34,880 bases of DNA from a virus. Both the position numbers and the translations under genes were made by a program. Position 1 is the stretch's first letter, and the number at the start of each line of letters is the position of its first letter. This document shows positions 9,425 to 34,880 of this stretch, piece after piece. The notes under the pieces were generated by a model. That model had not been told where the DNA came from. It made no database searches and saw nothing but the letters and a program-made list of their open reading frames with translations. The DNA lies in the IMG/VR virus record IMGVR_UViG_3300045988_170323. The stretch is one strand, 5' to 3'.

Positions 9425-10087
9425 TTATGATATCTTCTTATGCTTTCCTGGTCCTATATACATTTCCTTTCTATCGTGCTCTGCATCCTCACGTCCCCAT
9501 TGCACATACCTAAGAGTTACATCAGGTGAATCATGATTATACATCTTCATAAGTGTTAATACGTTGCCGCCATTCTTAATATATTGATATCCATAAGTCT
9601 TACGTAAACTATGCAATCCGAATGTATAAGGAATACCAATAGCTTCTCCGGCATTATGAATTATACGATATCCACGCTGCCTATTGATAGGATATATATA
9701 TGACCTGTCATTAAAATACTTCATCTGTCCTCGAAACAGATAATCATACAGACTTAGATTATACTTGCTTATATAATCAAGTATATCCTGGTGCAGCTGC
9801 TTATTCATACGGTAATTCTGCATCTTACCAGTCTTGTTTTCTTTAATCTGTATATATCCTTTAACAACATCAGCCACCCTGAGCTGCAGTAAATCTTCAG
9901 CTCGGAAAGCTGTATTAAGTCCGATGTGAAACAACATATAATCTCTGTCTGCCTGGTATCTCTTAACATCCGACTTTGCATTATTCTGCCTTTGCATAAA
10001 ATAGTTATATAACGCATCTATCTCTTTAGGATCCTTTATAGGTTGTGTTTCATGCTGCCCTGCAAAATACTTAATTCTTCTACCCAT
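9425..10087 (-). CDS. Small tyrosine recombinase (220 aa), essentially the catalytic domain only
   Basis: Catalytic residues R (AFRAEDL), H-x-x-R (HSLRKT), H (NHDS) and Y (TLRYV) are present. It has no N-terminal arm-binding domain and is preceded by a GGAGGT RBS. Confidence 0.85.
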   Translation of the reverse strand: MGRRIKYFAGQHETQPIKDPKEIDALYNYFMQRQNNAKSDVKRYQADRDYMLFHIGLNTAFRAEDLLQLRVADVVKGYIQIKENKTGKMQNYRMNKQLHQDILDYISKYNLSLYDYLFRGQMKYFNDRSYIYPINRQRGYRIIHNAGEAIGIPYTFGLHSLRKTYGYQYIKNGGNVLTLMKMYNHDSPDVTLRYVQWGREDAEHDRKEMYIGPGKHKKIS

Positions 10088-12346: not shown

Positions 12347-12568
12347 TTATGTAGTAATATTTATCCTTCTATCAGCTTCTAACATAAGCTCACCTATCTG
12401 ATCCGCATCCATTTCCACTAAAAGGATTTTTAACATCATCAGATATCTAAGTGTTCTGATGCGCAATCTGTAGTGCTCATTATCCGTAGTATTAAGCTTC
12501 TGTGCCTTAACTGTCTGATGAGCATATTTTTTAATACATCTATTAATCTCTTTAATCTCTCTATGCAT
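12347..12568 (-). CDS. Hypothetical protein (73 aa)
   Basis: ATGA start/stop overlap with the upstream gene. Confidence 0.5.
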   Translation of the reverse strand: MHREIKEINRCIKKYAHQTVKAQKLNTTDNEHYRLRIRTLRYLMMLKILLVEMDADQIGELMLEADRRINITT

Positions 12569-13176
12569 CAGCCTGTCTCCTTTGAATTATCAAGAAGCAA
12601 ATTATAAAAACTCTCATCTCTTTTTTCACGCTGCTCAAAATTATTAAATTTGTTACGCGCGTGCGCGCTATATATACTTTTATTTACTTTACTTTTCTTT
12701 GTTGCATTATTGTCAACATTAACCCTAGTTTCTGCAACATTAACCTCGGTTTCTGCAACATTTACTACATTTGAGGGTGACTTTAATAAAAGGTATGCAT
12801 TCTCCAAAAAAATTTTTGAACGACGTTTTAATGCTTCGGCATAGCGTTCCTGAATTCCTCTGCTTGTCAGGATCTGATACTTGTCGTACATTTCTTTTGA
12901 AAAGATACCTCTGTTCAGTGCCGTATTTACCACTGAACTTATAAAATTTGTCTTGTAATTAATGTCACCATCCATGACGATTTTAGTTGCAAACAGAATA
13001 AGTGAATCCTTATCCCACTTCATGTAATACCCTTCTTCTCCGTATATAGTCTGAAAAAGGCGTACTATGATACCAAAGCCAGCTATTCCATGCTCAGCTT
13101 CCAGTAATTGAAACTTCTGGTCAAGATTGCAGTCTAAAGGAAAGTAATCAAGATTACTCTTAACTGGTCTTGCCAT
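12568..13176 (-). CDS. DUF4373 (Lin1244/Lin1753-like) replication organiser-type protein
   Basis: The N-terminus MARPVKSNLDYFPLDCNLDQKFQLLEAEHGIAGFGIIVRLFQTIYGEEGYY matches the family signature. Confidence 0.65.
   Translation of the reverse strand: MARPVKSNLDYFPLDCNLDQKFQLLEAEHGIAGFGIIVRLFQTIYGEEGYYMKWDKDSLILFATKIVMDGDINYKTNFISSVVNTALNRGIFSKEMYDKYQILTSRGIQERYAEALKRRSKIFLENAYLLLKSPSNVVNVAETEVNVAETRVNVDNNATKKSKVNKSIYSAHARNKFNNFEQREKRDESFYNLLLDNSKETG
12723..12780. repeat. About 2.5 direct repeats of 21 bp (caacattaaccYYRgtttctg) inside the DUF4373 gene; candidate origin iterons
   Basis: Repeat starts at 12723, 12744 and 12765. The repeats encode NVAETEVNVAETRVNV. Confidence 0.45.
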
Positions 13177-13187
13177 AAAATATGCTC

Positions 13188-14210
13188 CTATCTTTTAAGG
13201 TACTTAGCCATAATATCTCTCTTTGACTGAGGTTCTGCTCTTGGCATAGCTCCAGGCGACTTCTTTACAAAATCAAAGTCATCCTTAAGCTCCTGTCTGC
13301 TCACAGTAGTATTGTTAATAATAATATCCTTACCGGATAATACATCATTATGTATCTCATCCAGTCTTGATAAAGGATAATTAAGTCCTGCAAGCATAAG
13401 AATACAGTCATTATCAGTATAAGTCCTGAATTCATCGTAAGGAACGCCTACAGCCTTATGTAGCTCTTCAAAACTGCTAATGCTCTCATCTGCTGCCAGT
13501 GCAATATACTTAACCTTATCGCCTTCAATCGTAGCATATATATCGCTAAAAATGCTCTTGGCTAAAGCAGCCATATTAGTATTTCCTGCACTATAAATAC
13601 AACTCATACCATGTGTTAATAAAGTTTCTTTAATCTCAGCATCATCGATGTTACCTCGCTGTGAAGAATAGTTATCAGGAATATGTACATAATTGTCAAA
13701 CATCTGGACAAATCTGTTATTAATATAAAACTTATCTGCCTTAGAATTATCAAGGATAAACAGAGATGCCATCTTATCAAGACTAAGCAGCTCTCTGAAG
13801 CACTCATAAGAATTATACTTAGTCTTTATAGACTCATCTGAAGTTGGAAGAATTGTAACAGCTCCTACCTTTCTGTTTTCATCCAGCATAAGATCAATCA
13901 GCATAGGACCTGTACCAGAACCAGTACCTCCACCGGATGAAAACACAACAAACAATATCTCGCAGTCCATAACCTTATCAACCATAGCTGCTATATTATC
14001 ATAGTCATCTATTACAAGCTTCTTAGCTTTATCCCTGTCCTTATTAGCACCTTCGCCATTTGTTATGTGATATACATACTTACTATCCTTCAATGTGTTA
14101 AGGTCTTCCTTGGACGTATTAATATACATCGCCGGATAACCTTCCTGTTCAAAGAGCTGGACTATATTGCCTCCGACCTGTCCTACTCCTATAAAACCAA
14201 TGTCTTTCAT
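13188..14210 (-). CDS. tubZ: TubZ-like tubulin/FtsZ-superfamily GTPase
   Basis: The motifs GVGQVGGNI (T1-like loop) and SSGGGTGSGTGP (tubulin signature GGGTGSG) are present, with a basic C-terminal tail ...SKRDIMAKYLKR. An ATGA overlap couples it to the upstream winged-helix gene. Confidence 0.8.
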   Translation of the reverse strand: MKDIGFIGVGQVGGNIVQLFEQEGYPAMYINTSKEDLNTLKDSKYVYHITNGEGANKDRDKAKKLVIDDYDNIAAMVDKVMDCEILFVVFSSGGGTGSGTGPMLIDLMLDENRKVGAVTILPTSDESIKTKYNSYECFRELLSLDKMASLFILDNSKADKFYINNRFVQMFDNYVHIPDNYSSQRGNIDDAEIKETLLTHGMSCIYSAGNTNMAALAKSIFSDIYATIEGDKVKYIALAADESISSFEELHKAVGVPYDEFRTYTDNDCILMLAGLNYPLSRLDEIHNDVLSGKDIIINNTTVSRQELKDDFDFVKKSPGAMPRAEPQSKRDIMAKYLKR

Positions 14211-18393: not shown

Positions 18394-19707
18394 ATGAGAG
18401 AACAAAAAGGTACTAATTTATTAATTTTTCCAAACGATTATACAGTTATTGATATCGAAACAACTGGTTTATCACCAGAATATGATGAAATAATTGAAGT
18501 GTGTGCATTAAAATATCGAAGCAAAAAAATGATAGATAAATATACTACATTAGTAAAACCTGAATATCCTGTTGACGAATATATTACATTTTTAACAGGT
18601 ATCACTAATGATATGTTATCATCTGCTCCATCTCTTAAAGATATTATACATACATTATATAATTTTATTGGAAATGATATTATAGTTGGTCATTCTGTCA
18701 ATTTTGATATCAACTTTATATATGATGCTTGCAATCAATATTTATCCGAACCTCTTACCAATGATTTTGTTGATACTTTAAGACTTGCAAGACTATTACA
18801 TAATGAAGAACATAATAGATTAAAAGACTTATGTATAAAATACAATTTATCATATGATAATGCACATAGAGCTGAATTTGATTGTTTAGTCACCAATGAG
18901 ATATTGTCTATATTTAACAATGAATTTATTGAAAATTATGGAGAAAATGAAACAATTAGTAACATATTTAGAAGATATGAAAATGGCAAATTAATTCCAA
19001 TAAAAGCCGCAGATATTTCAACGGATAAAACTGAATTTGATATAGATAATCCTATTTATGGAAAAACTGTTGTATTTACTGGTGCTTTAGAGAAAATGGT
19101 TAGAAAAGATGCTATGCAAATGGTTGCTGATTATGGTGGTATAAATGGTGATAATGTAACAAAAAACACTAATTATTTAGTACTTGGCAATAATGACTAT
19201 CACAATTCAATTAAAAATGGTAAAAGTAGTAAACAAAAAAAGGCAGAAAATTATAAACTTAAGGGATATGACATTGAAATAATACCAGAAAATGTATTTT
19301 ATGATATGGTTGATATTCCATCATCTGAGCCTGTTCCCACATATAACAATGACAATATATATAAACAGAGCTTATCGCTTAGTGATAGAGAAATATCTGT
19401 CATAGATGTTGTTAAATCATATCTTTCAACTTCACCTGACTTTTCTGCTTTTGGAGTAGACGTTAGAAGTGACAACTATATAACCTTGTTGTGCGGAAAT
19501 AACGATTTTATGAGGTTTAAATACTCTCCTCGCGTTTTTTGGATATCCTTAAGATTACCTTATGATGTAGCAAAAGCAAACATTGATAATCCCTTATTTG
19601 CAGCTCAACAAAATAAAAAACAAGCTCATTGGAAAGCCGCTTTAACATCTTTTGAAGAAATAGAAAAATTAAAGGATTTTATTATATTATCATTTATTAA
19701 TGATTAA
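18394..19707 (+). CDS. DEDDh (DnaQ-like) 3'-5' exonuclease, BRCT domain and an unknown 130-aa C-terminal domain
   Basis: ExoI is VIDIETTGL..DEIIE, ExoII is GHSVNFDINFI and ExoIII is HRAEFDCLVT. The BRCT-like stretch is GKTVVFTGALEKMVRKDAMQMVADYGGINGDNVTKNTNYLVLG. Confidence 0.75.
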   Translation: MREQKGTNLLIFPNDYTVIDIETTGLSPEYDEIIEVCALKYRSKKMIDKYTTLVKPEYPVDEYITFLTGITNDMLSSAPSLKDIIHTLYNFIGNDIIVGHSVNFDINFIYDACNQYLSEPLTNDFVDTLRLARLLHNEEHNRLKDLCIKYNLSYDNAHRAEFDCLVTNEILSIFNNEFIENYGENETISNIFRRYENGKLIPIKAADISTDKTEFDIDNPIYGKTVVFTGALEKMVRKDAMQMVADYGGINGDNVTKNTNYLVLGNNDYHNSIKNGKSSKQKKAENYKLKGYDIEIIPENVFYDMVDIPSSEPVPTYNNDNIYKQSLSLSDREISVIDVVKSYLSTSPDFSAFGVDVRSDNYITLLCGNNDFMRFKYSPRVFWISLRLPYDVAKANIDNPLFAAQQNKKQAHWKAALTSFEEIEKLKDFIILSFIND

Positions 19708-19878: not shown

Positions 19879-20730
19879 ATGGAGGTACTTAACTTGAGCT
19901 TACCAATAGATAAAGACATTGTTATAAAACATAAAAAGAATGCAATAAAAGAATTGAATAATCTTTTTGAACACTACATAAACGAACCATCTGGAAAATA
20001 TTTAAAAAAAGCCAATCTATTAGCCTATTGGTTCGAAACATATGTTAAATATATCAGAAATGAAGAACGTTATGATCCTAAAAAGCAAATTCGTTATAAC
20101 AGAGGTGACGTTATAAAAGTTAACTTTGGATTTAACATTGGAAAAGAATATGGTGGCTTACATTATGCAATAGTCCTTGACAAAAACAATCACTTAAGTG
20201 CTAATGTCGTAACTGTTGTTCCTCTTACATCTGGAACAGAATCTGAAACTTATAATACGGATGTGTATCTAGGTTCTGAACTTTTTAGCAAATTAGATGC
20301 ACGACATGCCTATATGCTTGAAAAAGCCCATAAGGATTTAGATGAATGTAGTAAAATAAAAGATTCCATTGATTCTACTAATTCTGTCATTGAAAAAATA
20401 ATTTCTAATGACACCAATTCTCAAAGTGAATATGATGACGAAATTGCTGCAACTTTAGCTGATAACTTAAGCATACTAACAGATAAACATAGTGAATTCA
20501 CACAAAAAATCGAACAAACAAATCAGGATATACAATTCCTTGAAAAAAGCCGACAAGAAATAGCAAAGCTAAAATCTGGAAGTATAGCTTTAATTGGTCA
20601 GATAACTACAATTGATAAATCCAGAATATACACACCAAGAAAATCAACAGATGTATTATATGGTATTAAATTTTCTGATGAAAAAATGAATGCTATAAAT
20701 GAAGCAATAAAAGCAAAAATCATCTTTTAA
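19879..20730 (+). CDS. MazF/PemK-fold protein with an N-terminal extension and a roughly 100-aa coiled-coil insertion
   Basis: RGDVIKVNFGFNIGKEYGGLHYAIVLDKNN...VVTVVPLTS is the N-half of the fold. After the coiled-coil insert, GSIALIGQITTIDKSRI...MNAINEAIKAKI is the C-half. The TTG at 19894 after GGAGGT is an alternative start. Confidence 0.6.
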   Translation: MEVLNLSLPIDKDIVIKHKKNAIKELNNLFEHYINEPSGKYLKKANLLAYWFETYVKYIRNEERYDPKKQIRYNRGDVIKVNFGFNIGKEYGGLHYAIVLDKNNHLSANVVTVVPLTSGTESETYNTDVYLGSELFSKLDARHAYMLEKAHKDLDECSKIKDSIDSTNSVIEKIISNDTNSQSEYDDEIAATLADNLSILTDKHSEFTQKIEQTNQDIQFLEKSRQEIAKLKSGSIALIGQITTIDKSRIYTPRKSTDVLYGIKFSDEKMNAINEAIKAKIIF

Positions 20731-21822: not shown

Positions 21823-22893
21823 ATGAAATTAGCTAATGGAATGGGTAGCGTATATAAGCTATCTGGAAGAAGACGTAAACCATGGGTTGCTCGTAAAACA
21901 AAAGGCTGGGATATTGATGAAAAAACTGGAAAAACCAAACAGCTCTACATGACTATTGGATATTTTCCCACAAGACAGGAAGCTCTTACTGCTCTTATTA
22001 ATTACAATGAAAACCCATATGATATAGAAATCAATAACATAACATTTGAGGAAGTATACGAGAAATGGAGCTCTGAACATTTTCTAAAAATATCTCAAAG
22101 TGGTGTAAGAAGTTGGATAAGTGCTTTTAATCATTCCAAACCGCTTCACAAGATGCGTATGAAAGATATCCGGGCTAATCATCTTGAAGGAACAATACAT
22201 AATGCTAATGTTGGTGAAGCTACCAAACAACGTATGAAAAGCTTATATAATCTTATGTATCGATATTGTCTGAAAAATGATATCGTTGATAAAAATTATG
22301 CAGCCCTTTGTGAAAGTGTATCACGTGGAGAAACCAAAATAAAGCGTGTACCATTCTCTGATGAGGAGATAATGAAGCTGTGGGATAACATAACATATCC
22401 ATTCACTGATATGGTTTTAATAGGCATATACAGCGGTTGGAGGCCTCAGGAGCTGGCTATTCTTAAGATAGCTGATATAGATTTAGATAACTGGTCCTTC
22501 ACCGGCGGTCTGAAAACCGATGCTGGCCGTAATCGTACTATACCTATTCATCCAGCCATCCAGAAGCTTGTTAAACAGAATTATGATAAAGCCATACAAA
22601 TGCATAGTGTTTATCTGTTTAATGATCAAAATGGACAACAAGGTACTCATCTTACTTATGACAAATATCGTGGTCGCTTTAATAAAGTTATGATGAAGCT
22701 TAACCTGAAGCATAAACCACATGATACAAGACATACATTTATCAATGCTGCTAAAGCAGCTAATATGAACGAATATGTATTAAAGATAATCGTTGGCCAC
22801 GTTATAGAAGATGTTACAGAAGCTGTATATACCCACAGAACTGTAGATCAACTTCGTGAAGAACTTATTAAAATCGACCTTCCTAATCCATAA
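21823..22893 (+). CDS. int: Phage integrase (tyrosine recombinase, full length with N-terminal domains)
   Basis: 356 aa. The catalytic motifs GWRPQEL (R), HDTRHTF (HxxR) and GHVIEDVTEAVYTH (H...Y) are present. Confidence 0.9.
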   Translation: MKLANGMGSVYKLSGRRRKPWVARKTKGWDIDEKTGKTKQLYMTIGYFPTRQEALTALINYNENPYDIEINNITFEEVYEKWSSEHFLKISQSGVRSWISAFNHSKPLHKMRMKDIRANHLEGTIHNANVGEATKQRMKSLYNLMYRYCLKNDIVDKNYAALCESVSRGETKIKRVPFSDEEIMKLWDNITYPFTDMVLIGIYSGWRPQELAILKIADIDLDNWSFTGGLKTDAGRNRTIPIHPAIQKLVKQNYDKAIQMHSVYLFNDQNGQQGTHLTYDKYRGRFNKVMMKLNLKHKPHDTRHTFINAAKAANMNEYVLKIIVGHVIEDVTEAVYTHRTVDQLREELIKIDLPNP

Positions 22894-22905
22894 TATAATA
22901 TCAAA

Positions 22906-22944
22906 ACAGACTGCTGATTATCACATACTGCAGTCTGTTTTTTG
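22906..22944 (+). terminator. Rho-independent terminator after int
   Basis: Stem acagactgc / gcagtctgt followed by a T-run. Confidence 0.6.
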
Positions 22945-22998
22945 TTAGTTATGTGTTAGTTACGTCTGTTAGTTACCTGTTAGTTACTTGTTAGTTAC
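22943..22998. repeat. Five tandem TGTTAGTTA(C/T) boxes at 11-13 bp spacing; candidate integrase arm-type sites
   Basis: Box starts at 22943, 22954, 22967, 22978 and 22989. Confidence 0.6.
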
Positions 22999-23060
22999 GT
23001 CTATAAATTCACGTTATTTCATACATTTTCAAAACATTTTTATTTTAATTGTATATAATA

Positions 23061-23096
23061 CAAAAACCGCCGCAATCCCAGTGATTACGGCGGTTT
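23061..23096 (-). terminator. Rho-independent terminator reading on the minus strand
   Basis: Stem aaccgccg / cggcggtt, followed on the minus strand by TTTTTG. Confidence 0.55.
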
Positions 23097-23183: not shown

Positions 23184-23195
23184 TTAGCATAATAT

Positions 23196-23216
23196 TGTTA
23201 GTTACGTGCTAATTAC
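23196..23216. repeat. Additional TGTTAGTTAC box plus a degenerate tgctaattac box (candidate second arm of attP)
   Basis: tgttagttacgtgctaattac read directly. Confidence 0.45.
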
Positions 23217-25401: not shown

Positions 25402-25425
25402 AAAAAAAGCACTGATAAACAGTGC
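25402..25425 (-). terminator. Terminator just outside the invertible fibre segment
   Basis: Stem gcactg / cagtgc followed by T7 on the minus strand. Confidence 0.45.
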
Positions 25426-25524
25426 AAAAGTGTATGCTTAACAGACATAACTTTATTAAATTTTTAAAAGCCATGCCTGGAGATTTCGTCTTTAATTTTT
25501 CTATAAAATATGTTCTTATGTTTC

Positions 25525-25540
25525 CTAAACAACAATATTA
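25525..25540. repeat. Inverted repeat, left copy (CTAAACAACAATATTA)
   Basis: It is the exact reverse complement of 26380-26395. Confidence 0.9.
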
Positions 25541-25866
25541 TTGAAACAATGGGTAGCAATGGTATTAGCTCTGGAAATAGTATAAATATGGATAGTGAGC
25601 TTTTTAGCTCTCATAAACCATTATATATTCACGCTATAACTACACAAAATCCTAATAGCATAGTCGGAATGCCTCAAGGTGCATATGGATATGGTGTTCT
25701 TATAACATTATTGTCAAAATATGAATCTTCATGGGCTTCATGTCAAATATATATACCTCATGGTGGTGAAGTTTCAAGAGATATATATGTTCGTACATCG
25801 GGCGATACATATAAAAGAAAACCGTCTTGGAGACGCATTGAAGCAACTCAAATTGAAGCGACTTAA
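25525..25866 (+). CDS. Silent alternative tail-fibre C-terminal cassette (knob-like), antisense to the late operon
   Basis: The frame opens only 18 nt before the repeat, and the ATG at 25510 has no RBS. The pattern GAYGYGVLITL...CQIYIP...IYVRT...SWRRI resembles pyocin/fibre knob domains. Confidence 0.6.
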   Translation, partial: LNNNIIETMGSNGISSGNSINMDSELFSSHKPLYIHAITTQNPNSIVGMPQGAYGYGVLITLLSKYESSWASCQIYIPHGGEVSRDIYVRTSGDTYKRKPSWRRIEATQIEAT

Positions 25867-25957
25867 ATAATTTAATTAAATAGCCGAATGTTGATATTAA
25901 GGAGTAATTAAAAGAAATATTGTTTTTGAAAATTTTATATATATTTCCAATTTAATA

Positions 25958-26521
25958 TTACTGTAAAAATACAAATTCACCATATATATAATAGCCTTTA
26001 ACAAATTCCGAAGCTGCCCATGCGCCCAAGTATCCATCTGTATTATAATACCGTGCAAGCCTTATCATCTTGTTTGTTTGGTCGATACATGTGCCATAAC
26101 CTATTAGTTTGTTGATAATTTTCCCTTCTGCATTATAGCACTGCCATGTACCACCTAATATTTTGATTGCATCAGATATTTGTAAGTTAAACAAATTAAA
26201 TACTTTATTAATATCATATCTGAATTTGAAATCGCTTGTATCTGAACTTGCACGTTCAATTTTAGTCGTGAACTTTAATATGCCAACTTTTGCCGTCTTA
26301 TTGTAAATAGCAAAATTATATCCATATCCTTCACAATTGCTTTCCGATATAAAATTTTTTGTAAAGCAACTATAAAAGGTAATATTGTTGTTTAGCTCAC
26401 TTATCATGCTGTTATTGTTCTTTATCCCATCCTCCATGTGGTTCAGCCTTGCTGCACTCCATGGTGTGCCTCCGCCTGGTCCGTTTTTCCATAATTGTTT
26501 TACATATTCTATAAAATTCAT
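25958..26521 (-). CDS. Tail fibre / receptor-binding protein (currently expressed form)
   Basis: The N-terminal WKNGPGGGTPWSAARLNHMEDGI is a common phage fibre N-terminal motif. The gene follows Tal. Confidence 0.65.
   Translation of the reverse strand: MNFIEYVKQLWKNGPGGGTPWSAARLNHMEDGIKNNNSMISELNNNITFYSCFTKNFISESNCEGYGYNFAIYNKTAKVGILKFTTKIERASSDTSDFKFRYDINKVFNLFNLQISDAIKILGGTWQCYNAEGKIINKLIGYGTCIDQTNKMIRLARYYNTDGYLGAWAASEFVKGYYIYGEFVFLQ
26380..26395. repeat. Inverted repeat, right copy (TAATATTGTTGTTTAG) inside fibre codons 43-48
   Basis: It is the exact reverse complement of 25525-25540. Confidence 0.9.
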
Positions 26522-26549: not shown

Positions 26550-29500
26550 CTAGACCCATTCACTATTTCCAGGGCTATATTTATATGAAGCAATTATTGT
26601 GTTATCTATATATATTCTAAGATAAGTTCCATCCCAGCCAAATGAAATATCGTTATCTGAAGTCCTATTTAAAGCTGCTCCACACCAACCAATATTTTGA
26701 TTATATAATTTAAAAGAATCTGTCTTTATTCCTCCTATAACAGATAGAGCACAATCCTTATAATAATTAGTATTATTATTACAAATGCGAACATATCCCT
26801 TGCCTATTTTTGTGTATTTTTGAGAATTTGGCTGATACCATAATGTTATACTATCTCTAAGCACTGAAACTTCTGTGCCAGCGGATCCAGTTATAATAAG
26901 TCCATCTCCACTGCCATCATCACTATTAGATACCAATGTAAGTGTATTTATATTTTCTTTATTTCTTGCATGTATTCCGTGTGGATGTATTAGAGTATAT
27001 GTATTATTGGTTGTATCAAGCATCTTAAGATATCCACCAAAAAGACATGCTTCAGAATTAAATGTATTACCTGACTCTTGCAATTGACCATACGAACACA
27101 TTTTACCTTCTGCTGTTATAAAGAATGTATAATCAAACAAATTATTCTTTTCCTTAGTAACTTGTAATATATGCGTTGATGGCTTTTCTGCTTTGTGTAA
27201 TGATACATCATATGTCACATCATTATAATCGTATGATGAATATATTGACTTATCACCTATTTTCCAGCCGCCAACTGTACCACCATCTACAATGATATTT
27301 TTACACTTTGTTATTCTGCCATCTTCCGTAAGTGTAAAATTATCACTATCTATAGCAATTCTATTCCCCGAGAGGTTAAGTCCACCTTTGGCCGTAATAT
27401 TAATCGTGTCTGCAATAGCTTCTATGGCACTCTTTAACTGACCATCCTTATTCTCTATTAATGCTTTCAAGCTTGCAGATGTAGCATAATCCCCCAGCTT
27501 GGCAGTTACTGCCGCCGATATACTTGTTTCCCCAGGTGAAATAGCCTGGATAATATCTGCCGTTGTCGAATACGTTTTAAGAGCATTATCAGTATAATTA
27601 TTAGCCCCAGATGTTGCTGCATTGGCTGCATCATCAGCATACTTCTGTGTTGCATAAGTCGCCTGCAGTGAAGAGCTTATTGTTGATTTATCATCCTTAA
27701 TTTCCTGAACAATCCGGTTAACCATTTCGGTTGTAGTAGAATAGTTGTTAACTAAATCCTTTCTAACGCTCGTAAGCTCACCTGTTATATTATCTACAGC
27801 TACATCATGCCGGGCGAATCTGTTAAGCATATAGGCTGTTTCTGTGTTTGATATCTCTTCCCACACCCAAGCATCATCTTTCTTTGTAAATCTCCAGGTC
27901 TTATTAGCCGTTGGATTATATGCTATGGCTCCTACATGTAGAGCGTATGCTGAATCATTATATTGCCACGTATCTGTTTCAAGTGGATACCAGTCTTCCG
28001 CAGGATATACTGGGACAAAAAACTCCGTCGCCGGATAATTATCAAGGGTTGGAATTTCCGATACCGTATATGCATTAAAATCTCCGCCTATCCGCTTATA
28101 CGTTTCTGACACATATGTTTTAACACTATCAGCTGACAGCTTTATAGCTGATTCCATATCCTTTGTAACCGTATAATTCTTTAAGGCATCAGTTAATGCA
28201 TTTGCTGCAGTACCTTCTGCTGCTGACTGTGCTGCACTTGCCACTCCATCTGCATATTCCTTGGTAGAATTTATTCCATCTGTAAAATCTGTCATAGTTG
28301 TATACGTTTTAGATATTGAAGATGTAATGCTTTCCTCACTCTGACTTATAAGAGATTTTGCAGATTCAGTTGTTATATAGTTATCCTTGATATCAACCTT
28401 AACCCTGCTAACTTCCGCTGTTATCCCATCAATAGCAACCTGAAAAGCTGCATGCTTATTAAGCATATAAGCTGTCTCACTTGCAGATATTTCCGTCCAT
28501 CCATATGTCCCAGACGACTGTTTAAGAAACTTCCAGGCACGATTAGAACTTTTCATATAAGCAACTGCTCCTGCGTGTTTAGCATACTCTTCTTGTGTAT
28601 ACTGCCATGTATCTGTTTCAAGTGGGTACCAGTCCTCTGCTGGATATACTTTCACAAAGAATTCAGTTGCTGGATAATTGTCCAGCGTTGGTACCTCTGT
28701 AATATCATATATCTCAAATGTACCATTAAGCTGCTTAGTAACGTCCGACATATCTATCTTAAAGCTGTCTAATGTTGTCTTAACATCATTAAACTTGCTT
28801 TTTACAGAATTGCCTTCCTCATCAATATCCGTCCACCACAGTTTATGCTCTATGAATGTCTTAGCCTGCAGCATAGTAGAACCCCATGCATCAGAACCAC
28901 CGCTAACATAATTATTAATAGTCTGAAATGTACTCTCCAATGTCTGATCTGTTGTATCTACATGTATCTTACTTGCATTAAAAGTATTGCTCTTATCTGC
29001 GTTCATAACACTAAATACACTATCTATATCCAGCTTCTTTCCAGATATGGCGGCATTATCAGATACCATATCATTTCTGATAATTGCTTTCTTAATGCCA
29101 GCCTCTTGAACGCCATACAACGGGTCAAACATCAATTTTCCGTCTTTATCCCATATATATATATTATAATCACCGGCTGCATCCTTACCTAGCTGGATAC
29201 GTACCCTATCCTTGTCACTTATCTGGATGGTATTATCCTTCCATGTAGACTTACCATCTTCACTATGTACGTTCATTACTGTTGTATTGATATCTATACC
29301 AGTTATCTTATCAAATGCCAGGTCTTTTATCATAGCGCTTGTTATCTGCGCATCACCAATTACAGATACAACCGAATTAGCAAAATCCGTTGTTATAGTT
29401 GTGCCGGTGGCAGAACCGAACAACAAAGTATTCACCTTTTCAACATCAACATTCAGGTCCTTAACACTTGCTTTTATCGCTTCAAAGTCAGTTGCCTTTA

Positions 29501-30734
29501 AATCTGCAAATTCACCGCTAAGCGACTTAAGGCTCTCAATCGTTGCATATGTAATCTCTGCCTCAGCGCTTTTAAGAGTTGTTGTTTCCAATGTACCTAT
29601 CTTTGCTTCTGCGGCCATCATGCTCTGTTCAACTTCAAGTACCTTTGTCTTTGTATTTACAAACTCAGCATTATTTGCAATAACTGTATCAATATTAAGA
29701 ACTTTAGATGCATCAATATTATCAATACAATCACCATCAACAGTACCATTGTCATTTGTAATATTATCAACCGTATCAGTTGTATTATTATATTTCTGCA
29801 CATATGAAGAAAACGAAAGCTTCATGTTAGATATCTCACAGGTATCATCTGCCGGATTATCTGGATAATGCTTCAGCTTAACTATGCGCTGCTTTATTCT
29901 TGTATGCTTCTGCTTATTAATAATCGTAATAACATCACCAACATCACAAGAATTATCCAGGTCAATCAGCTTACAACTATAAGATATATAAGGACAAGCT
30001 AGCTCTTCAAGCTTAGCTGCCGCATCCTCTTTTAAAGATTCAGGTATCGTATATCTTTCATCTTTCCATATGTACGTCTTATTCTTTGCACTATAAGTAT
30101 GATTTTCTAGGAATTTACTACCATAATTCACAGATTCTATAGTAAGACCATCTTTACCTATTGGAAGAATTCTTGTATAAAAATTCGTAGTATCTGACTG
30201 ACTGCTTAATGAAACAAGATTAAGCTGATCAGAAAAATAACAGCCTTTATCTTCTCCTATTTTCTCCTTATAAATAATTTTCTTATTCAGTGAATCTATA
30301 GTCATCTCAAGTCTGAATGTGTCTGCAATCTTTTTAAGAATGTCCCAGGATGAACTATTAGTCATTCTTACAGTACGTTTCTTTTTAATATCACATTCAC
30401 AAGTCCAGCCGGTTCCTGCTAAGGCAAGATTAACAGTATTTAGGGCTGTCTGCTCTACAGTTTCAAATTTCTGTATTGCATTACCTTCTAGCGCATCAAT
30501 ATTAAGCTTCGCAACTATGTCATAGAAATTATTATCAGAGTCATTTATCTGTTTTATAACATATTCATCAGTCTTGGTTATTATATAATCTTCAAGCTCA
30601 ATCTTATTCACAACACTTTGATCAGCGCCGAAACTAAGTGTTTTATCACCATAATCAAGCACTTTTTCGATATATAAATCCTTATATTTTGTAATCGGCG
30701 ATACTATGCCGCTTTTATCTTTATATCTTAACAT
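26550..30734 (-). CDS. Tail-associated protein (Tal; prophage tail endopeptidase-type N-terminus) with a long fibre-like extension
   Basis: 1394 aa. The N-terminus MLRYKDKSGIVSPITKYKDLYIEKVLDYGDKTLSF is typical of Tal / minor structural proteins, and the gene follows Dit. Confidence 0.75.
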   Translation of the reverse strand: MLRYKDKSGIVSPITKYKDLYIEKVLDYGDKTLSFGADQSVVNKIELEDYIITKTDEYVIKQINDSDNNFYDIVAKLNIDALEGNAIQKFETVEQTALNTVNLALAGTGWTCECDIKKKRTVRMTNSSSWDILKKIADTFRLEMTIDSLNKKIIYKEKIGEDKGCYFSDQLNLVSLSSQSDTTNFYTRILPIGKDGLTIESVNYGSKFLENHTYSAKNKTYIWKDERYTIPESLKEDAAAKLEELACPYISYSCKLIDLDNSCDVGDVITIINKQKHTRIKQRIVKLKHYPDNPADDTCEISNMKLSFSSYVQKYNNTTDTVDNITNDNGTVDGDCIDNIDASKVLNIDTVIANNAEFVNTKTKVLEVEQSMMAAEAKIGTLETTTLKSAEAEITYATIESLKSLSGEFADLKATDFEAIKASVKDLNVDVEKVNTLLFGSATGTTITTDFANSVVSVIGDAQITSAMIKDLAFDKITGIDINTTVMNVHSEDGKSTWKDNTIQISDKDRVRIQLGKDAAGDYNIYIWDKDGKLMFDPLYGVQEAGIKKAIIRNDMVSDNAAISGKKLDIDSVFSVMNADKSNTFNASKIHVDTTDQTLESTFQTINNYVSGGSDAWGSTMLQAKTFIEHKLWWTDIDEEGNSVKSKFNDVKTTLDSFKIDMSDVTKQLNGTFEIYDITEVPTLDNYPATEFFVKVYPAEDWYPLETDTWQYTQEEYAKHAGAVAYMKSSNRAWKFLKQSSGTYGWTEISASETAYMLNKHAAFQVAIDGITAEVSRVKVDIKDNYITTESAKSLISQSEESITSSISKTYTTMTDFTDGINSTKEYADGVASAAQSAAEGTAANALTDALKNYTVTKDMESAIKLSADSVKTYVSETYKRIGGDFNAYTVSEIPTLDNYPATEFFVPVYPAEDWYPLETDTWQYNDSAYALHVGAIAYNPTANKTWRFTKKDDAWVWEEISNTETAYMLNRFARHDVAVDNITGELTSVRKDLVNNYSTTTEMVNRIVQEIKDDKSTISSSLQATYATQKYADDAANAATSGANNYTDNALKTYSTTADIIQAISPGETSISAAVTAKLGDYATSASLKALIENKDGQLKSAIEAIADTINITAKGGLNLSGNRIAIDSDNFTLTEDGRITKCKNIIVDGGTVGGWKIGDKSIYSSYDYNDVTYDVSLHKAEKPSTHILQVTKEKNNLFDYTFFITAEGKMCSYGQLQESGNTFNSEACLFGGYLKMLDTTNNTYTLIHPHGIHARNKENINTLTLVSNSDDGSGDGLIITGSAGTEVSVLRDSITLWYQPNSQKYTKIGKGYVRICNNNTNYYKDCALSVIGGIKTDSFKLYNQNIGWCGAALNRTSDNDISFGWDGTYLRIYIDNTIIASYKYSPGNSEWV
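27431..28720. repeat. In-frame tandem duplication (two units of about 645 bp / 215 aa) within Tal
   Basis: (V/I)PTLDNYPATEFFV(K/P)VYPAEDWYPLETDTWQY...W(K/R)F...ETAYMLN... occurs twice, offset by 645 nt. Confidence 0.8.
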
Positions 30735-31268: not shown

Positions 31269-31979
31269 TCATCTGTAAAACGCCCTATAATCAACCTTCA
31301 CACTACACGAATTATCAAGTGTAATAATATTTTTCCCAGGCATTAGCCTTGGAAACTCCCATAGATCAGTCTTATCAAGTATATTCTGGCCATTTTCCGT
31401 AATCGTACAATTCTGGCCATCAATAACAACCTTTGCATTCCTGGCTATATCCTTAATAGTTATAGCTTCATCAGTTATACCGGTTACAGTAAGATTTACT
31501 AATGCTATATCCGGTGTAATCGTTACAATCGCTGGCGACTTTGAAGTGCCTTCCATTACAAGTGTTTTTTCTTTACCGGTAAATTCTACAGTACGTAATA
31601 TTCCCTTCTTGCTATACGCATTAAGATTAATCTTATAACTATATAACCACCTCTTCACAAGTTCCCTATCTTCGCTCTTAAAGTCAAAGTCATATGTAAA
31701 GTTCATATTATCAAGCTGCAGCTCTCCAGAATCAAAATCACTCATTATAGAACTCATAGTAAGCTCACACTCTTCCTTGCTTTTACCTTTAACAAGCATT
31801 TCTATACATATCTCAAAATCCGTGTACCTGTTAGGTTTTGACTTTGCTGGAAGAAAGCTTTCTGCCAACCAGTCAACATAAGTTACAACATTACGTGGCT
31901 TAACCGTCTGGCTAAGCCACGTAACATTTTTATATTTCTTTCGTAAGTCAATATTTGCATTACTTTTATTCACTATCAT
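31269..31979 (-). CDS. Distal tail protein (Dit)
   Basis: 236 aa with an ATGA overlap onto the tape measure stop; canonical position. Confidence 0.65.
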   Translation of the reverse strand: MIVNKSNANIDLRKKYKNVTWLSQTVKPRNVVTYVDWLAESFLPAKSKPNRYTDFEICIEMLVKGKSKEECELTMSSIMSDFDSGELQLDNMNFTYDFDFKSEDRELVKRWLYSYKINLNAYSKKGILRTVEFTGKEKTLVMEGTSKSPAIVTITPDIALVNLTVTGITDEAITIKDIARNAKVVIDGQNCTITENGQNILDKTDLWEFPRLMPGKNIITLDNSCSVKVDYRAFYR

Positions 31980-34561
31980 CTATCAGTCACCAACTTCAAT
32001 GCAGCCTGATTCATAAAGTAATCAACATCTGCCTTATCCTTAAAATTATAGTTTCCGTTAAAGTTAATCTGTGTATTGTTGCTTGTTGTCTGGCTGCCCT
32101 GTGAACCAGAAGCAACCATTCCACTTATATTAAGATTAGTTGCCAGTTCCATAGCTGCATCTGATATAAGATGCTTCTGTTGGTTAATCTGCTCTGCCAT
32201 CCTGCCAACAAAGTCAGGCATCCATTCCTCATAATCCCTAAGAGGTCCTTCATCCGGACGTGAGAAATGCAGGAAGCTTGTTATCTTCTCTGCTACTGAT
32301 TTAGCTGCATTCCCAACCGCACCAAGCATAGACCAGATACCATCAATTAGACCACTTATCATATCAGAACCCCATGAGAAAGCTATATCAACCAGATCAC
32401 CGAATGTATTGTAAAGAAATGAAACCATATTACCAATAACACTTCCTATACCTTCAACGATGCCACCAATTATTTCAAGCAAGCCATGCCATGCTCTGTC
32501 CCAGTCTCCAGTAATCACACCCATAACAACATCTATAATTCCCTGTATGGTATGCATAATTCCTTCCACAATACCTTGTATAGCGCCAAGTACTGAACTA
32601 ATTGCATTTTTAATAATTGCAAGTGCAGCTTTTATAATTGCTGATATTGTCGATATCCACAATGATATAACGAGCTTAATATATTCACAGAATACAGAAA
32701 TAGCACCTTTAATAATTTCTAAAGCCGTCATAATCACTGGTTCTATTGTCTCCCAGAATGACTGTATAGCCGTTATCATTCCATTGAAAAATGCTTTCAG
32801 ATATGATGCTAATTCCGTAAATTTCGTATTAATAAAGTTCCTGAAATCATCACACTTAAAATATAAAGCTGTTATTATAGCTATTACCGCCGTAACAGCA
32901 GCTATAACAAGTCCTATCGGTCCTGTAAGTACTGCCAGTGCTCCTGACAATCCAGCAACAGCGCCGCTCGTCCCTGTTATTATTCCAATCAATGTCGTTA
33001 TTATTGGAATAATTGTAGACACAAGACTTATAATTGACGATATTCCAGTTGCTATCTTACCGAATATTATCAGTGCCGGTCCAATCGCCGCCACTACTAA
33101 TGCTATATTAACTATGAGCCGCTTAGAGCTTTCTGACATTCCATTAAACTGTGATACAACACTCATAATGCCTTGTACTATCTGTAATATACTTGGCATT
33201 AAAAGTTCACCCATACTTATAGCAAGCTCCTGAAGCTGGCTTTTAAGTGTTGTAATCTGTCCACTCAGATTATCCTGCATTGTAGCAGCCATATTCTCTG
33301 CTGTTCCATCGCAGTTATTAATAGCTCCTGACAATTTTTCTATATCTGAAGGAGCTGCATTCATAAGTGCAAGAAAGCCTGACATAGCCTCCGTGCCAAC
33401 AAGAGAACTTGCAGCACTTGACTTCTCTGATTCCGACAAATGACCAAACGCTTCACGGCAATCTGATAATATATATGATAAACCTCTCATGGATCCATCA
33501 GCATTAGTTGTTGCTATTGTTACCTTGCCTAACTCATTTCCTTCAATCTCAATATCACCAGTTAAGGAAGTCATTATCTTACGAAGTGTTGTACCTGCCT
33601 GTGAAGCCTTTATACCACTATTTGCCATAAGTCCAATAGCTTCAGCAGTATCTTCTACACTATAGCCTAATGCTCCTGCAATAGGTGCTGCATACTTGAA
33701 TGTCTCACCCATCATAGACACATTTGTATTGGCATTAGAAGAAGCAGCCGCTAAAACATCTGCAAAATGTCCTGAATCTTCTGCTTTCAATCCAAATGCT
33801 GTAAGTGCATCAGTTACTATATCTGACGTTGTTGCCAGGTCTTCCCCTGATGCCGCTGCAAGATTCATTATTCCAGATATACCATCAATCATATCTGATG
33901 TTTTCCACCCTGCCATAGCCATATAGCCAAATGCATCACCAGCTTCTGTAGCTGAGAACTTAGTCTGTGACCCCATTTCTCTTGCTTTACTCTTAAGCGC
34001 TTCTAAATCCTCACCAGTTGCACCTGATATGGCTGCAACATTGCTCATAGAACTTTCAAAATCAGCAGTAGTTTTTACTGCCGCCGCACCCAGACCAACT
34101 ATAGCAGCACTTCCCTTAGACATATTACGTCCAATGCTCTGTGCTCCCTCGCCAACCTTTCCAGTAACATCCGCTATACTTGCAAGCTTTGCATTCGCAG
34201 ACATGCTTTCTTTAGTAAGATTCTTAAGTTCCTGCTCCGTAGCAACAATCTCCCTGCAGAGCGCCTGGTATTGTTCCTGGCTTATCTTGCCCTTCTGTCC
34301 TACCTCTGTTGCCGCCTGCTTCTCAGCTTCTTTTAAAGCTGTAAGCTTATTACTCGTTTCTTCTATAGCAGTCTTTAATAGTTTCTGCTTCTGGCTTAAC
34401 AGCTCAGTATTAGTAGGATCCAGCTTTAATAACTTATTAACATCTTTTAATTCACTTTGGGTTGTCTTTATTGCCGAATTCGTATCTTTTAATGCACTTT
34501 GGAGTTTAGTTGTATCTCCTCCAATTTCTACAGTAATTCCTGCTATTCTACTTTTCGCCAT
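31976..34561 (-). CDS. Tape measure protein
   Basis: 861 aa with an N-terminal coiled coil, a central hydrophobic/Gly-Ala-rich region, and the expected position. Confidence 0.9.
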   Translation of the reverse strand: MAKSRIAGITVEIGGDTTKLQSALKDTNSAIKTTQSELKDVNKLLKLDPTNTELLSQKQKLLKTAIEETSNKLTALKEAEKQAATEVGQKGKISQEQYQALCREIVATEQELKNLTKESMSANAKLASIADVTGKVGEGAQSIGRNMSKGSAAIVGLGAAAVKTTADFESSMSNVAAISGATGEDLEALKSKAREMGSQTKFSATEAGDAFGYMAMAGWKTSDMIDGISGIMNLAAASGEDLATTSDIVTDALTAFGLKAEDSGHFADVLAAASSNANTNVSMMGETFKYAAPIAGALGYSVEDTAEAIGLMANSGIKASQAGTTLRKIMTSLTGDIEIEGNELGKVTIATTNADGSMRGLSYILSDCREAFGHLSESEKSSAASSLVGTEAMSGFLALMNAAPSDIEKLSGAINNCDGTAENMAATMQDNLSGQITTLKSQLQELAISMGELLMPSILQIVQGIMSVVSQFNGMSESSKRLIVNIALVVAAIGPALIIFGKIATGISSIISLVSTIIPIITTLIGIITGTSGAVAGLSGALAVLTGPIGLVIAAVTAVIAIITALYFKCDDFRNFINTKFTELASYLKAFFNGMITAIQSFWETIEPVIMTALEIIKGAISVFCEYIKLVISLWISTISAIIKAALAIIKNAISSVLGAIQGIVEGIMHTIQGIIDVVMGVITGDWDRAWHGLLEIIGGIVEGIGSVIGNMVSFLYNTFGDLVDIAFSWGSDMISGLIDGIWSMLGAVGNAAKSVAEKITSFLHFSRPDEGPLRDYEEWMPDFVGRMAEQINQQKHLISDAAMELATNLNISGMVASGSQGSQTTSNNTQINFNGNYNFKDKADVDYFMNQAALKLVTDR

Positions 34562-34609: not shown

Positions 34610-34791
34610 AAAGTCTTCCTGCTGTGCCACAACTGGCCAGTCGTATTCATCATTCATTTTTTCTGCATACATATCATACACAAGCCCTATTGTTACATAA
34701 TCACAATCTTGAATAGAAAGCCCTATCTGCAGACATCGGTACATAAACAATGGTGTTGTCATTTCCCTGCTAGTTGCTCTAATTTTTTTTT
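34598..34791 (-). CDS. gpT-like -1 frame extension of the tail chaperone (G/GT programmed frameshift product)
   Basis: The -1 frame after the A9 run stays open for 62 codons (IRATSREMTTPLFMYRCLQIGLSIQDCDYVTIGLVYDMYAEKMNDEYDWPVVAQQEDFDRF*). It stops just before the tape measure gene. Confidence 0.65.
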
Positions 34792-34880
34792 ACTTTCTAT
34801 TGTTGTAATGTTATCAAGATGCCACAGCTTTAAAATCTCCGGCAACACCTGATATATAGAAAATGTATCAAACTGCTCAA
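34759..34880 (-). CDS. Tail assembly chaperone (gpG-like), 3' part (partly duplicates 1-99)
   Basis: This is the same ORF as 1..352(-). The TGA stop is at 34759-34761. Confidence 0.75.
   Translation of the reverse strand, partial: EQFDTFSIYQVLPEILKLWHLDNITTIESKKKLEQLAGK
34782..34880. repeat. Terminal direct repeat, copy 2
   Basis: Identical to bases 1-99. Confidence 0.95.

Follow-up and report, generated by a model that had tools for sequence, protein, structure and literature searches.

A probable invertase-less inversion switch in a phage tail-fibre gene and its recombinase-bearing relatives

The Rin shufflon of Bifidobacterium prophages consists of a XerD-like tyrosine invertase, Rc and Rv cassettes, and 11-bp rix sites (Mavrich et al. 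2018, PMC6109161), and it was later noted in prophages of Eggerthella lenta (PMC8778435). The Bifidobacterium study also describes an inverted tail locus that has no recombinase and proposes that an invertase acts on it in trans (PMC6109161). Here, we analyzed a comparable locus in the tail-fibre gene of IMG/VR virus record IMGVR_UViG_3300045988_170323, a stretch of 34,880 nt that we refer to in full as the window. At this locus, a segment bounded by inverted repeats (25525-26395) carries two alternative C-terminal cassettes, of which one (A) is currently joined to the constant N-terminus of the fibre and the other (B) is silent. We consider it very probable that the locus is a site-specific inversion switch, or minimal shufflon, in a distal tail-fibre (receptor-binding protein) gene, that its invertase has been lost, and that inversion would now depend on a recombinase acting in trans.

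Judged from the published descriptions, Rin appears to be the closest known system. In Rin and here, a constant N-terminus of the receptor-binding protein (Rc) is followed by unrelated C-terminal cassettes (Rv), short asymmetric repeats lie at the boundary, and orientations differ between prophage and virion or between related genomes. Sister phages of the window phage also resemble Rin in having a XerC/D-like tyrosine recombinase without an arm-binding domain, and the recombinase-less inverted locus with its proposed trans-acting invertase corresponds to the situation in the window. The systems differ in host (Actinomycetota for Rin; Bacillota, probably Lachnospira, here) and in site (the 11-bp rix sequence TTCCCTAACCC versus a 12-nt core, CTAAACAACAAT, with an ATAAGT arm). 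The recombinase gene lies at one end of the Rin locus, whereas in the sister phages it lies in mid-shufflon between inverted sites and can itself flip. Unlike Rin, the window locus has two cassettes and no recombinase. No Rin-like prophage was identified among the listed GenBank phage matches, no GenBank phage record matched the locus, and no literature linking shufflons to Lachnospiraceae phages was found in the searched library.

The R64/IncI1 shufflon also ranks among the closest known systems. In it, the tyrosine recombinase Rci acts on sfx sites in the gene of the tip adhesin PilV, and rci lies outside the shufflon. Much as we propose here, multiple inversion by a tyrosine recombinase swaps the C-terminal segments of an adhesin behind a constant N-terminus, at asymmetric sites that have one conserved arm plus core and one variable arm (in the present phages, the left arm is (A)TAAGTnnn and the right side is cassette-specific). 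However, the R64 target is a plasmid conjugative-pilus gene rather than a phage fibre gene, and the site sequences are unrelated. The Mu G (Gin), P1 C (Cin), e14 (Pin), and p15B (Min) segments share with this locus a constant fibre N-terminus, tail-to-tail C-termini, crossover sites within the coding sequence, and the logic of a host-range switch. These systems use serine invertases (Resolvase domain) together with an enhancer and Fis. In contrast, a Pfam scan of 28 window open reading frames (ORFs; 99-1394 residues, comprising all long ORFs except antisense frames within genes) yielded no Resolvase domain, in agreement with a preliminary description made from the sequence alone, and relatives of the window phage carry a tyrosine recombinase instead. 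The Mu-type cassettes include a separate chaperone or assembly gene (U/U'), whereas each cassette here is a single short domain, and the present site is asymmetric and unrelated in sequence to the 26-bp gix/cix-type sites with their 2-bp crossover. The parallel with Mu G and P1 C drawn in the preliminary description concerns architecture only. Intragenic invertons form a more general, survey-based class (Chanin et al., bioRxiv 10.1101/2023.03.11.532203). In that class, as here, repeats lie inside the coding sequence and inversion recodes the C-terminus to give an alternative in-frame product; the present case adds a defined multi-cassette family and a probable cognate recombinase identified in relatives.

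The reverse complement of the 16-nt sequence CTAAACAACAATATTA (25525-25540) recurs without mismatch at 26380-26395. The arms are separated by 839 nt (871 nt inclusive) and constitute the only 16-nt inverted repeat in the window with arms 100-2000 nt apart, measured from start to start. Dinucleotide shuffles of the whole window yielded some 16-nt inverted repeat of the same spacing class in ~4% of cases; the repeat by itself is modestly unusual, and the comparative evidence is decisive. The right copy extends from codon 43 through the first base of codon 48 in the minus-strand fibre ORF at 25958-26521 (SELNNNITFYSC; ...ISELNNNITFYSC...). The left copy is translated as LNNNI in a plus-strand ORF of 118 residues at 25510-25866 (MFLCF-LNNNI-IETMGSNG...). 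The frame of this ORF opens at 25507, after a TAA at 25504-25506 and 18 nt ahead of the repeat, and no Shine-Dalgarno sequence precedes its start. These positions and frames are as the preliminary description had given them. The 12-nt core (codons L-N-N-N) has just two occurrences in the window, even when one mismatch is allowed, and is read as LNNN at both, so inversion keeps the reading frame. The biologically meaningful repeat is this core plus a left arm, and the trailing ATTA just happens to match in cassettes A and B.

The constant N-terminal part of the gene (codons 1-46, MNFIEYVKQLWKNGPGGGTPW...ISELNNN; 26384-26521, minus strand) ends in the core and is followed by two oppositely oriented alternatives. 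Cassette A (~140 residues, TFYSCFTKNF...EFVFLQ and stop; 25958-26379, minus strand) is in current fusion with the N-terminus and is expressed. Cassette B (IETMGSNG...ATQIEAT and stop; 25541-25866, plus strand) is silent and antisense to the late operon; it has 108 residues rather than the 107 counted in the preliminary description. The tail-to-tail cassettes are separated by an AT-rich spacer (25867-25957), and an imperfect hairpin has one arm in the spacer (25935-25953) and its partner just inside cassette A (25973-25991). We considered whether A and B are diverged duplicates, but BLASTP gave no significant similarity between them, merely a shared GYGY-like patch.

More than 20 independent metagenomic and viral contigs, produced by different assemblers from different samples, carry the locus. 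Among 23 metagenome matches to a 22-nt pattern, 12 (L031-36, L038, L039, L041, L042, L049, and L050) had no fibre homology and were excluded as chance matches. The segment from 25525 to 26395 is inverted, with both flanks collinear with the window, in L007, L009, L011, L046, L047, and L004-6, and alignment places the strand switch exactly at the 16-nt repeat. The window's orientation was found in L003, L037, L045, and L052. L046 and L047 contain the exact reciprocal junctions taagtgag-CTAAACAACAATATTA-ttgaaacaatgg and tatgtttc-CTAAACAACAATATTA-ccttttatagtt. Thus, both orientations occur naturally with breakpoints at the sites, and the two junctions predicted in the preliminary description (N-terminus-repeat-B and flank-repeat-A) were both seen in other assemblies. 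The integrated prophage L044 lacks the recombinase and has the opposite orientation; it matches the window at 99.6% identity across 2189 nt of the downstream flank and 792 nt of the segment, and its homology to the window stops at attP. L004, a 1379-nt MEGAHIT contig, runs from the tail through N-terminus, repeat, and B to A, a second repeat, and the reverse complement of the N-terminus, with ends that are identical at 72/72 positions. This layout indicates that k-mers for both junction types occur in one sample. Many contigs end within or beside the segment (e.g., L005, L006, L010, L044, and L051), perhaps because the assembly graph branches where a site occurs in both orientations.

The predicted alternative product was also found at the protein level. 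A search with the silent 118-residue ORF returned proteins of 153-169 residues in which the N-terminus is fused in frame to B (P0002, P0005-P0009, and P0013), as anticipated for the inverted state, along with "off-state" ORFs like that of the window (P0001, P0003, and P0004). Silent B in the window is identical to the expressed copy in L046 at 321/321 nt, and cassette A shows 99-100% amino acid identity in all relatives, whether on or off. Neither cassette contains a stop or frameshift in any copy seen, and all parts of the preliminary description's inversion model that could be checked held up. The invertible segment (25541-26379) is 99.8-99.9% identical across L003, L037, L045, L046, and L047, whose flanks are just 83-96% identical; this pattern suggests that the cassette pair may have been exchanged horizontally between phages.

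The constant N-terminus of ~46-47 residues recurs across many proteins, and several copies are identical at every residue. In PHROGs, it matches minor-tail and head-fibre families (phrog_2012, minor tail protein, E=3.6e-8). In 84 database proteins with this N-terminus, ~20 C-terminal families without detectable mutual similarity start directly after ELN(N/S)N. One further protein, P0046 (172 residues), has the C-terminal two-thirds of the holin attached to the fibre N-terminus behind ELNSN; it either arose by deletion at the shufflon site or reflects a misassembly there. In L012 and L013 (9400-10360), protein P0036 has the B domain in frame behind an E-like cassette, linked through a degenerate site, CTAGACAACAAT (LDNN). 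Proteins of this type appear to be longer two-domain fibres rather than carriers of a silent cassette, which suggests that old sites can become domain linkers.

A short asymmetric repeat lies upstream of every variable cassette and is rare elsewhere in the genome, although its sequence differs from rix. The proximal recombination site of the window (26380-26404, minus strand) has the left arm ATAAGTGAG at 26404-26396, the core at 26395-26384, and ATTA at 26383-26380, and the inversion breakpoints of relatives map here. The distal site (25516-25540, plus strand) has a degenerate left arm, TTATGTTTC, at 25516-25524, then the core at 25525-25536 and ATTA. Across phages, all sites share the left arm (A)TAAGTnnn and a 12-nt core of the form CTAAAYARYAAT, and the sequence to the right of the core is cassette-specific. 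The core varies among phages (...CAACAAT, ...CAGTAAT, ...TAGTAAT, ...CAGCAAT, and, in L019, ...CTCCAAT), but within one phage it is identical at all three or four sites. Such concerted change is predicted by the homology-dependent crossover (overlap) region of a tyrosine recombinase and would fit a crossover region that requires homology. The exact cleavage points are not derivable from sequence alone. A palindromic AATATT crossover, suspected from an A/D junction in L008, was ruled out: the full D cassette (P0035) reveals an ordinary deletion in L008 that truncates D, and positions past the 12-nt core vary between the sites of one phage.

The sister phages carry a larger version of the locus, with three or four sites in alternating orientation and up to four cassettes. 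L040 is a close relative of the window phage, with amino acid identities of 97.5% for the C-terminus of the upstream tail protein Tal and 98% for the fibre N-terminus. Its order is N-terminus, site 1 (plus), cassette B' forward, cassette A reverse, site 2 (minus), a recombinase gene (rec327) forward, site 3 (plus), cassette F forward, cassette E reverse, site 4 (minus), and orf99. The same site pattern, with the recombinase between the two plus-minus pairs, recurs in L001, L014, L016/17, L053, and L019, and three of the four sites are seen in L015. A XerC/D-like gene lies between sites 2 and 3 in L001, L014-17, L019, L040, and L053. The rec327 product has 327 residues, with core-binding (Phage_int_SAM_1/4) and catalytic (Phage_integrase) domains and no arm-binding domain; it scores 233 bits against the NCBIfam XerA model (cut-off 220), and its best PDB matches are XerC-like proteins, XerA, and XerD. 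From this placement and family, we infer that rec327 is the cognate invertase of the sites.

Some cassettes lie silent in one contig but are expressed in another, among them C (silent in L008, expressed as P0021) and F (silent in L040, expressed as P0043 and P0042). Further silent cassettes have matches fused to the same N-terminus (D, P0035; E-like, P0027). Taken with the shared sites, the locus in the window appears to be a minimal, orphan member of a larger tail-fibre shufflon of the tyrosine-recombinase type. What would set it apart is the combination of an invertase gene placed between inverted sites within the shufflon, repeated loss of that gene, and an orphan two-cassette switch found in both orientations.

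Related recombinases occur in other settings. L019 (4324-7545) belongs to a different phage with an unrelated 457-residue fibre containing Ala/Ser-rich repeats, a recombinase of the same family (65% identical), and four sites whose core, ACTAAACTCCAATA, is not that of the window. L019 also carries a separate integrase, 73% identical to that of the window, which indicates that the rec327-family enzyme is not the integrase of that phage. The invertase-site module thus seems to have moved between fibre types. Two cultured Clostridia phages, Terrisporobacter phage TPELB_ph1 (L072, 17645-18640) and Clostridium perfringens phage phiCp-D (L073, 21639-22616), encode XerC/D-like "integrases" that are 32-33% identical to rec327 and, like it, have the tail genes on one side and holin-endolysin on the other; another integrase is encoded elsewhere in TPELB_ph1. 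A search around these two genes for flanking inverted repeats or cassettes gave nothing convincing.

Loss of the invertase gene left a recognizable junction. The first and last 99 nt of the window are identical (1-99 and 34782-34880), indicating a circularly closed assembly of a ~34.78-kb genome; the genome is therefore complete, and gene absences hold for all of it. No rec327 homologue is present in it. In the recombinase-less phages, the distal junction fuses tgttcttatgtttc, which flanks L040 site 4 on the left, with either the right flank of site 2 (cassette A) or that of cassette B; in L046, it is the site 4 left flank and the site 2 right flank. Recombination between two sites in direct orientation would yield precisely this junction, with rec327 excised along with cassettes F and E. 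The enzyme may have deleted its own gene in this way, since that gene lies between sites. L008 (2428-2720) shows a separate loss of rec327, in which an ordinary deletion truncates the core of cassette A and the first third of D. It joins the truncated A core head-to-head with 5'-truncated D and leaves only B' and C between intact sites. The clean deletion of the window type and the ordinary deletion of L008 together indicate that the invertase gene was lost at least twice.

In the proposed switch, strand exchange within the cores would invert the segment, so that the N-terminus, promoter, and ribosome-binding site would read into B instead of A. The product would change from 187 to 155 residues and acquire a wholly different distal domain, presumably with a different receptor specificity. 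An intrinsic-terminator-like hairpin (GCACTG-TTTAT-CAGTGC followed by T7; 25402-25425, minus strand), already noted in the preliminary description, lies just outside the segment and 3' of the fibre gene in either orientation, where it would serve both states. A second, weaker terminator-like hairpin (25823-25835, minus strand) lies within cassette B in antisense, downstream of cassette A in the present orientation. Any flipping now would require a trans-acting recombinase, for which the most plausible origin would be rec327 of a co-resident or co-infecting sister phage, given the identical core and left arm and the apparently shared hosts; the window's own 220-residue recombinase (rec220) and integrase would be less likely sources.

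Several explanations other than an orphan switch inverted in trans were weighed. A chance repeat in AT-rich sequence, combined with misassembly as the cause of the orientation differences, has next to no probability. Such repeats do arise in shuffled windows at the rate given above, and several contigs end in or beside the segment, but exact reciprocal junctions recur in the >20 independent contigs, and in-frame fusions, multi-cassette relatives, a conserved left arm, concerted cores, and an embedded recombinase cannot arise by chance; this explanation is effectively refuted already. It is also quite improbable that the switch is self-sufficient, with one of the window's own enzymes inverting the segment and no helper needed. 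The only recombinases found in the window are two proteins with Phage_integrase catalytic domains: rec220 (9425-10087, minus strand; PF00589, E=2.5e-17), which consists of the catalytic domain only, and a 356-residue lambda-type integrase that adjoins attP (21823-22893, plus strand). The size of rec220 is that of FimB/FimE, and it weakly matches their NCBIfam invertase models; tyrosine invertases such as FimB/E and Clostridioides difficile RecV can act on distant sites. However, neither enzyme is orthologous to the shufflon-embedded recombinase, to which rec220 is 28% identical over 50 residues and the integrase 26% over 164 residues, in both cases within catalytic motifs. The 18 IMG/VR contigs that carry close homologues of rec220 (72-100% identical) include no shufflon contig (0/18), and the near-full-length shufflon contigs L011 and L028 have no rec220 match; we therefore rejected rec220 as a dedicated invertase. 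For the integrase, the probable arm-type repeats, TGTTAGTTA, differ from the shufflon site. The preliminary description had proposed a tyrosine-recombinase-driven or host-driven switch with an invertase acting in trans and named these two enzymes as the only recombinases in the genome. The association with a tyrosine recombinase is borne out in relatives, whereas the two named enzymes are not rec327 orthologues and rec220 is unlinked to the shufflon.

A more serious alternative, although we judge it unlikely, is that the locus is a frozen relic. Here, the ancestors' invertase flipped the segment, gene loss locked each lineage, and the window makes only fibre A, with B an undecayed fossil. The complete circular genome has no rec327 homologue, and loss at least twice independently makes loss look frequent, so that independent losses in differing configurations are possible. 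In addition, the B alleles differ by 4 synonymous and 17-18 non-synonymous substitutions, giving a ratio of non-synonymous to synonymous rates (dN/dS) of ~1.1-2.4 from few substitutions. Yet the type 1 segment allele occurs in recombinase-less phages in both orientations (window, L003, L037, and L045 versus L044, L046, and L047), as does the type 2 allele (L052 versus L007 and L009), which would require at least four independent clean deletions, a conceivable history but a less parsimonious one. Only 0.4% divergence separates the window from L044, yet their orientations are opposite; silent B is nucleotide-identical to an expressed copy with no disrupted copy seen, and both core sites are perfectly kept. 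These near-identical recombinase-less phages in opposite orientations lead us to consider inversion in trans likely, and we think there is a good chance that switching continues in this phage. More tentatively, and at somewhat less than even chance, the orphan inverton may still be flipped, but only by the invertase of a sister phage, with a shared recombinase circulating among Lachnospira phages and repeated loss amounting to free-riding. If so, host-range switching would depend on a recombinase held in common by these phages.

Some points weigh against an orphan switch that is still inverted in trans. The genome does not encode the cognate invertase, which means that the switch could be frozen, and the orientation differences could stem from independent deletions in recombinase-bearing ancestors of differing configuration. 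The case for inversion within the window's own phage population comes from other assemblies rather than from reads, and the double junction in L004 could reflect two co-existing strains instead of switching. The dN/dS of B would fit diversifying selection, but relaxed constraint as well. The receptor-binding role is likewise argued solely from where the gene lies and how variable it is. Pfam, PHROGs, and PDB profile searches with A, B, and eight further cassettes gave no significant match. Structure models of both fibre variants, as recommended in the preliminary description, were made with AlphaFold2 and had predicted local distance difference test (pLDDT) scores of 47 for the A form and 56 for the B form, too poor for fold searching; at this low confidence, nothing beyond a short helical N-terminus and a beta-rich C-terminus can be made out. 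The argument for a receptor-binding role of the C-termini combines the position of the gene directly after Tal, the short conserved anchor, the extreme C-terminal diversity, and the B-allele dN/dS of at least 1, from which such a role seems probable.

Lachnospiraceae are abundant, hard-to-culture gut commensals whose phages are almost unstudied. The locus defines a putative programmable host-range module with a constant anchor of ~46-47 residues and a 12-nt in-frame crossover core, along with a pool of ~20 unrelated distal domains in public data and a XerC/D-like enzyme, the putative cognate invertase, in sister phages. It would offer a natural scaffold on which receptor-binding domains could be exchanged. 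In metagenomic work, phage-host assignment and strain tracking must allow for chimeric ORFs and for contig ends at the segment. The occurrence of the recombinase-less version in both orientations on near-identical backgrounds makes the question of trans driving by other prophages testable.

By gene content, the window is the genome of a temperate siphovirus, probably of gut Lachnospira. A Lachnospira metagenome-assembled genome was the sole match in a scan of a genome collection, with the match limited to the fibre N-terminus, and one homologue bears the name of a Lachnospira sp. protein. Integrated copies adjoin cotJ, PTS, and groES genes. The window encodes a terminase, a portal protein, a ClpP-type protease, and a capsid protein. 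Upstream of the fibre gene lie the tape measure (31976-34561), Dit (31269-31979), and, directly upstream, Tal (26550-30734, minus strand; 1394 residues), which has a Prophage_tail endopeptidase domain (Pfam PF06605, E=3e-44); this neighbour places the fibre gene in the distal tail module. The tail-lysis genes also include the 187-residue fibre, a 99-residue ORF (orf99), holin, and GH25 endolysin, and elsewhere the window encodes a LexA-like repressor, a TubZ-like protein, and the integrase with its attP.

Downstream of the integrase gene are five direct TGTTAGTTA repeats (22943-22997) and a sixth ~200 nt further on (23196-23204), which are likely arm-type sites flanking attP. The att core probably lies near 23055-23062, where homology to L044 ends, and no tRNA gene was found in the window. 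A shufflon-like site at attP (23190-23205, three mismatches) overlaps one of the six repeats and was not treated as a shufflon site. A TubZ-like tubulin/FtsZ GTPase (13188-14210; PF00091 and TubZ_C_3) adjoins a Lin1244_N protein (12568-13176), and the pair (12568-14210) forms a partition or positioning module that is unusual alongside an integrase in one phage. A 283-residue ORF (19879-20730) with a PemK/MazF-like toxin domain at residues 75-140 sits between a DEDDh exonuclease-BRCT protein (18394-19707) and the integrase, and it may be toxin or defence cargo.

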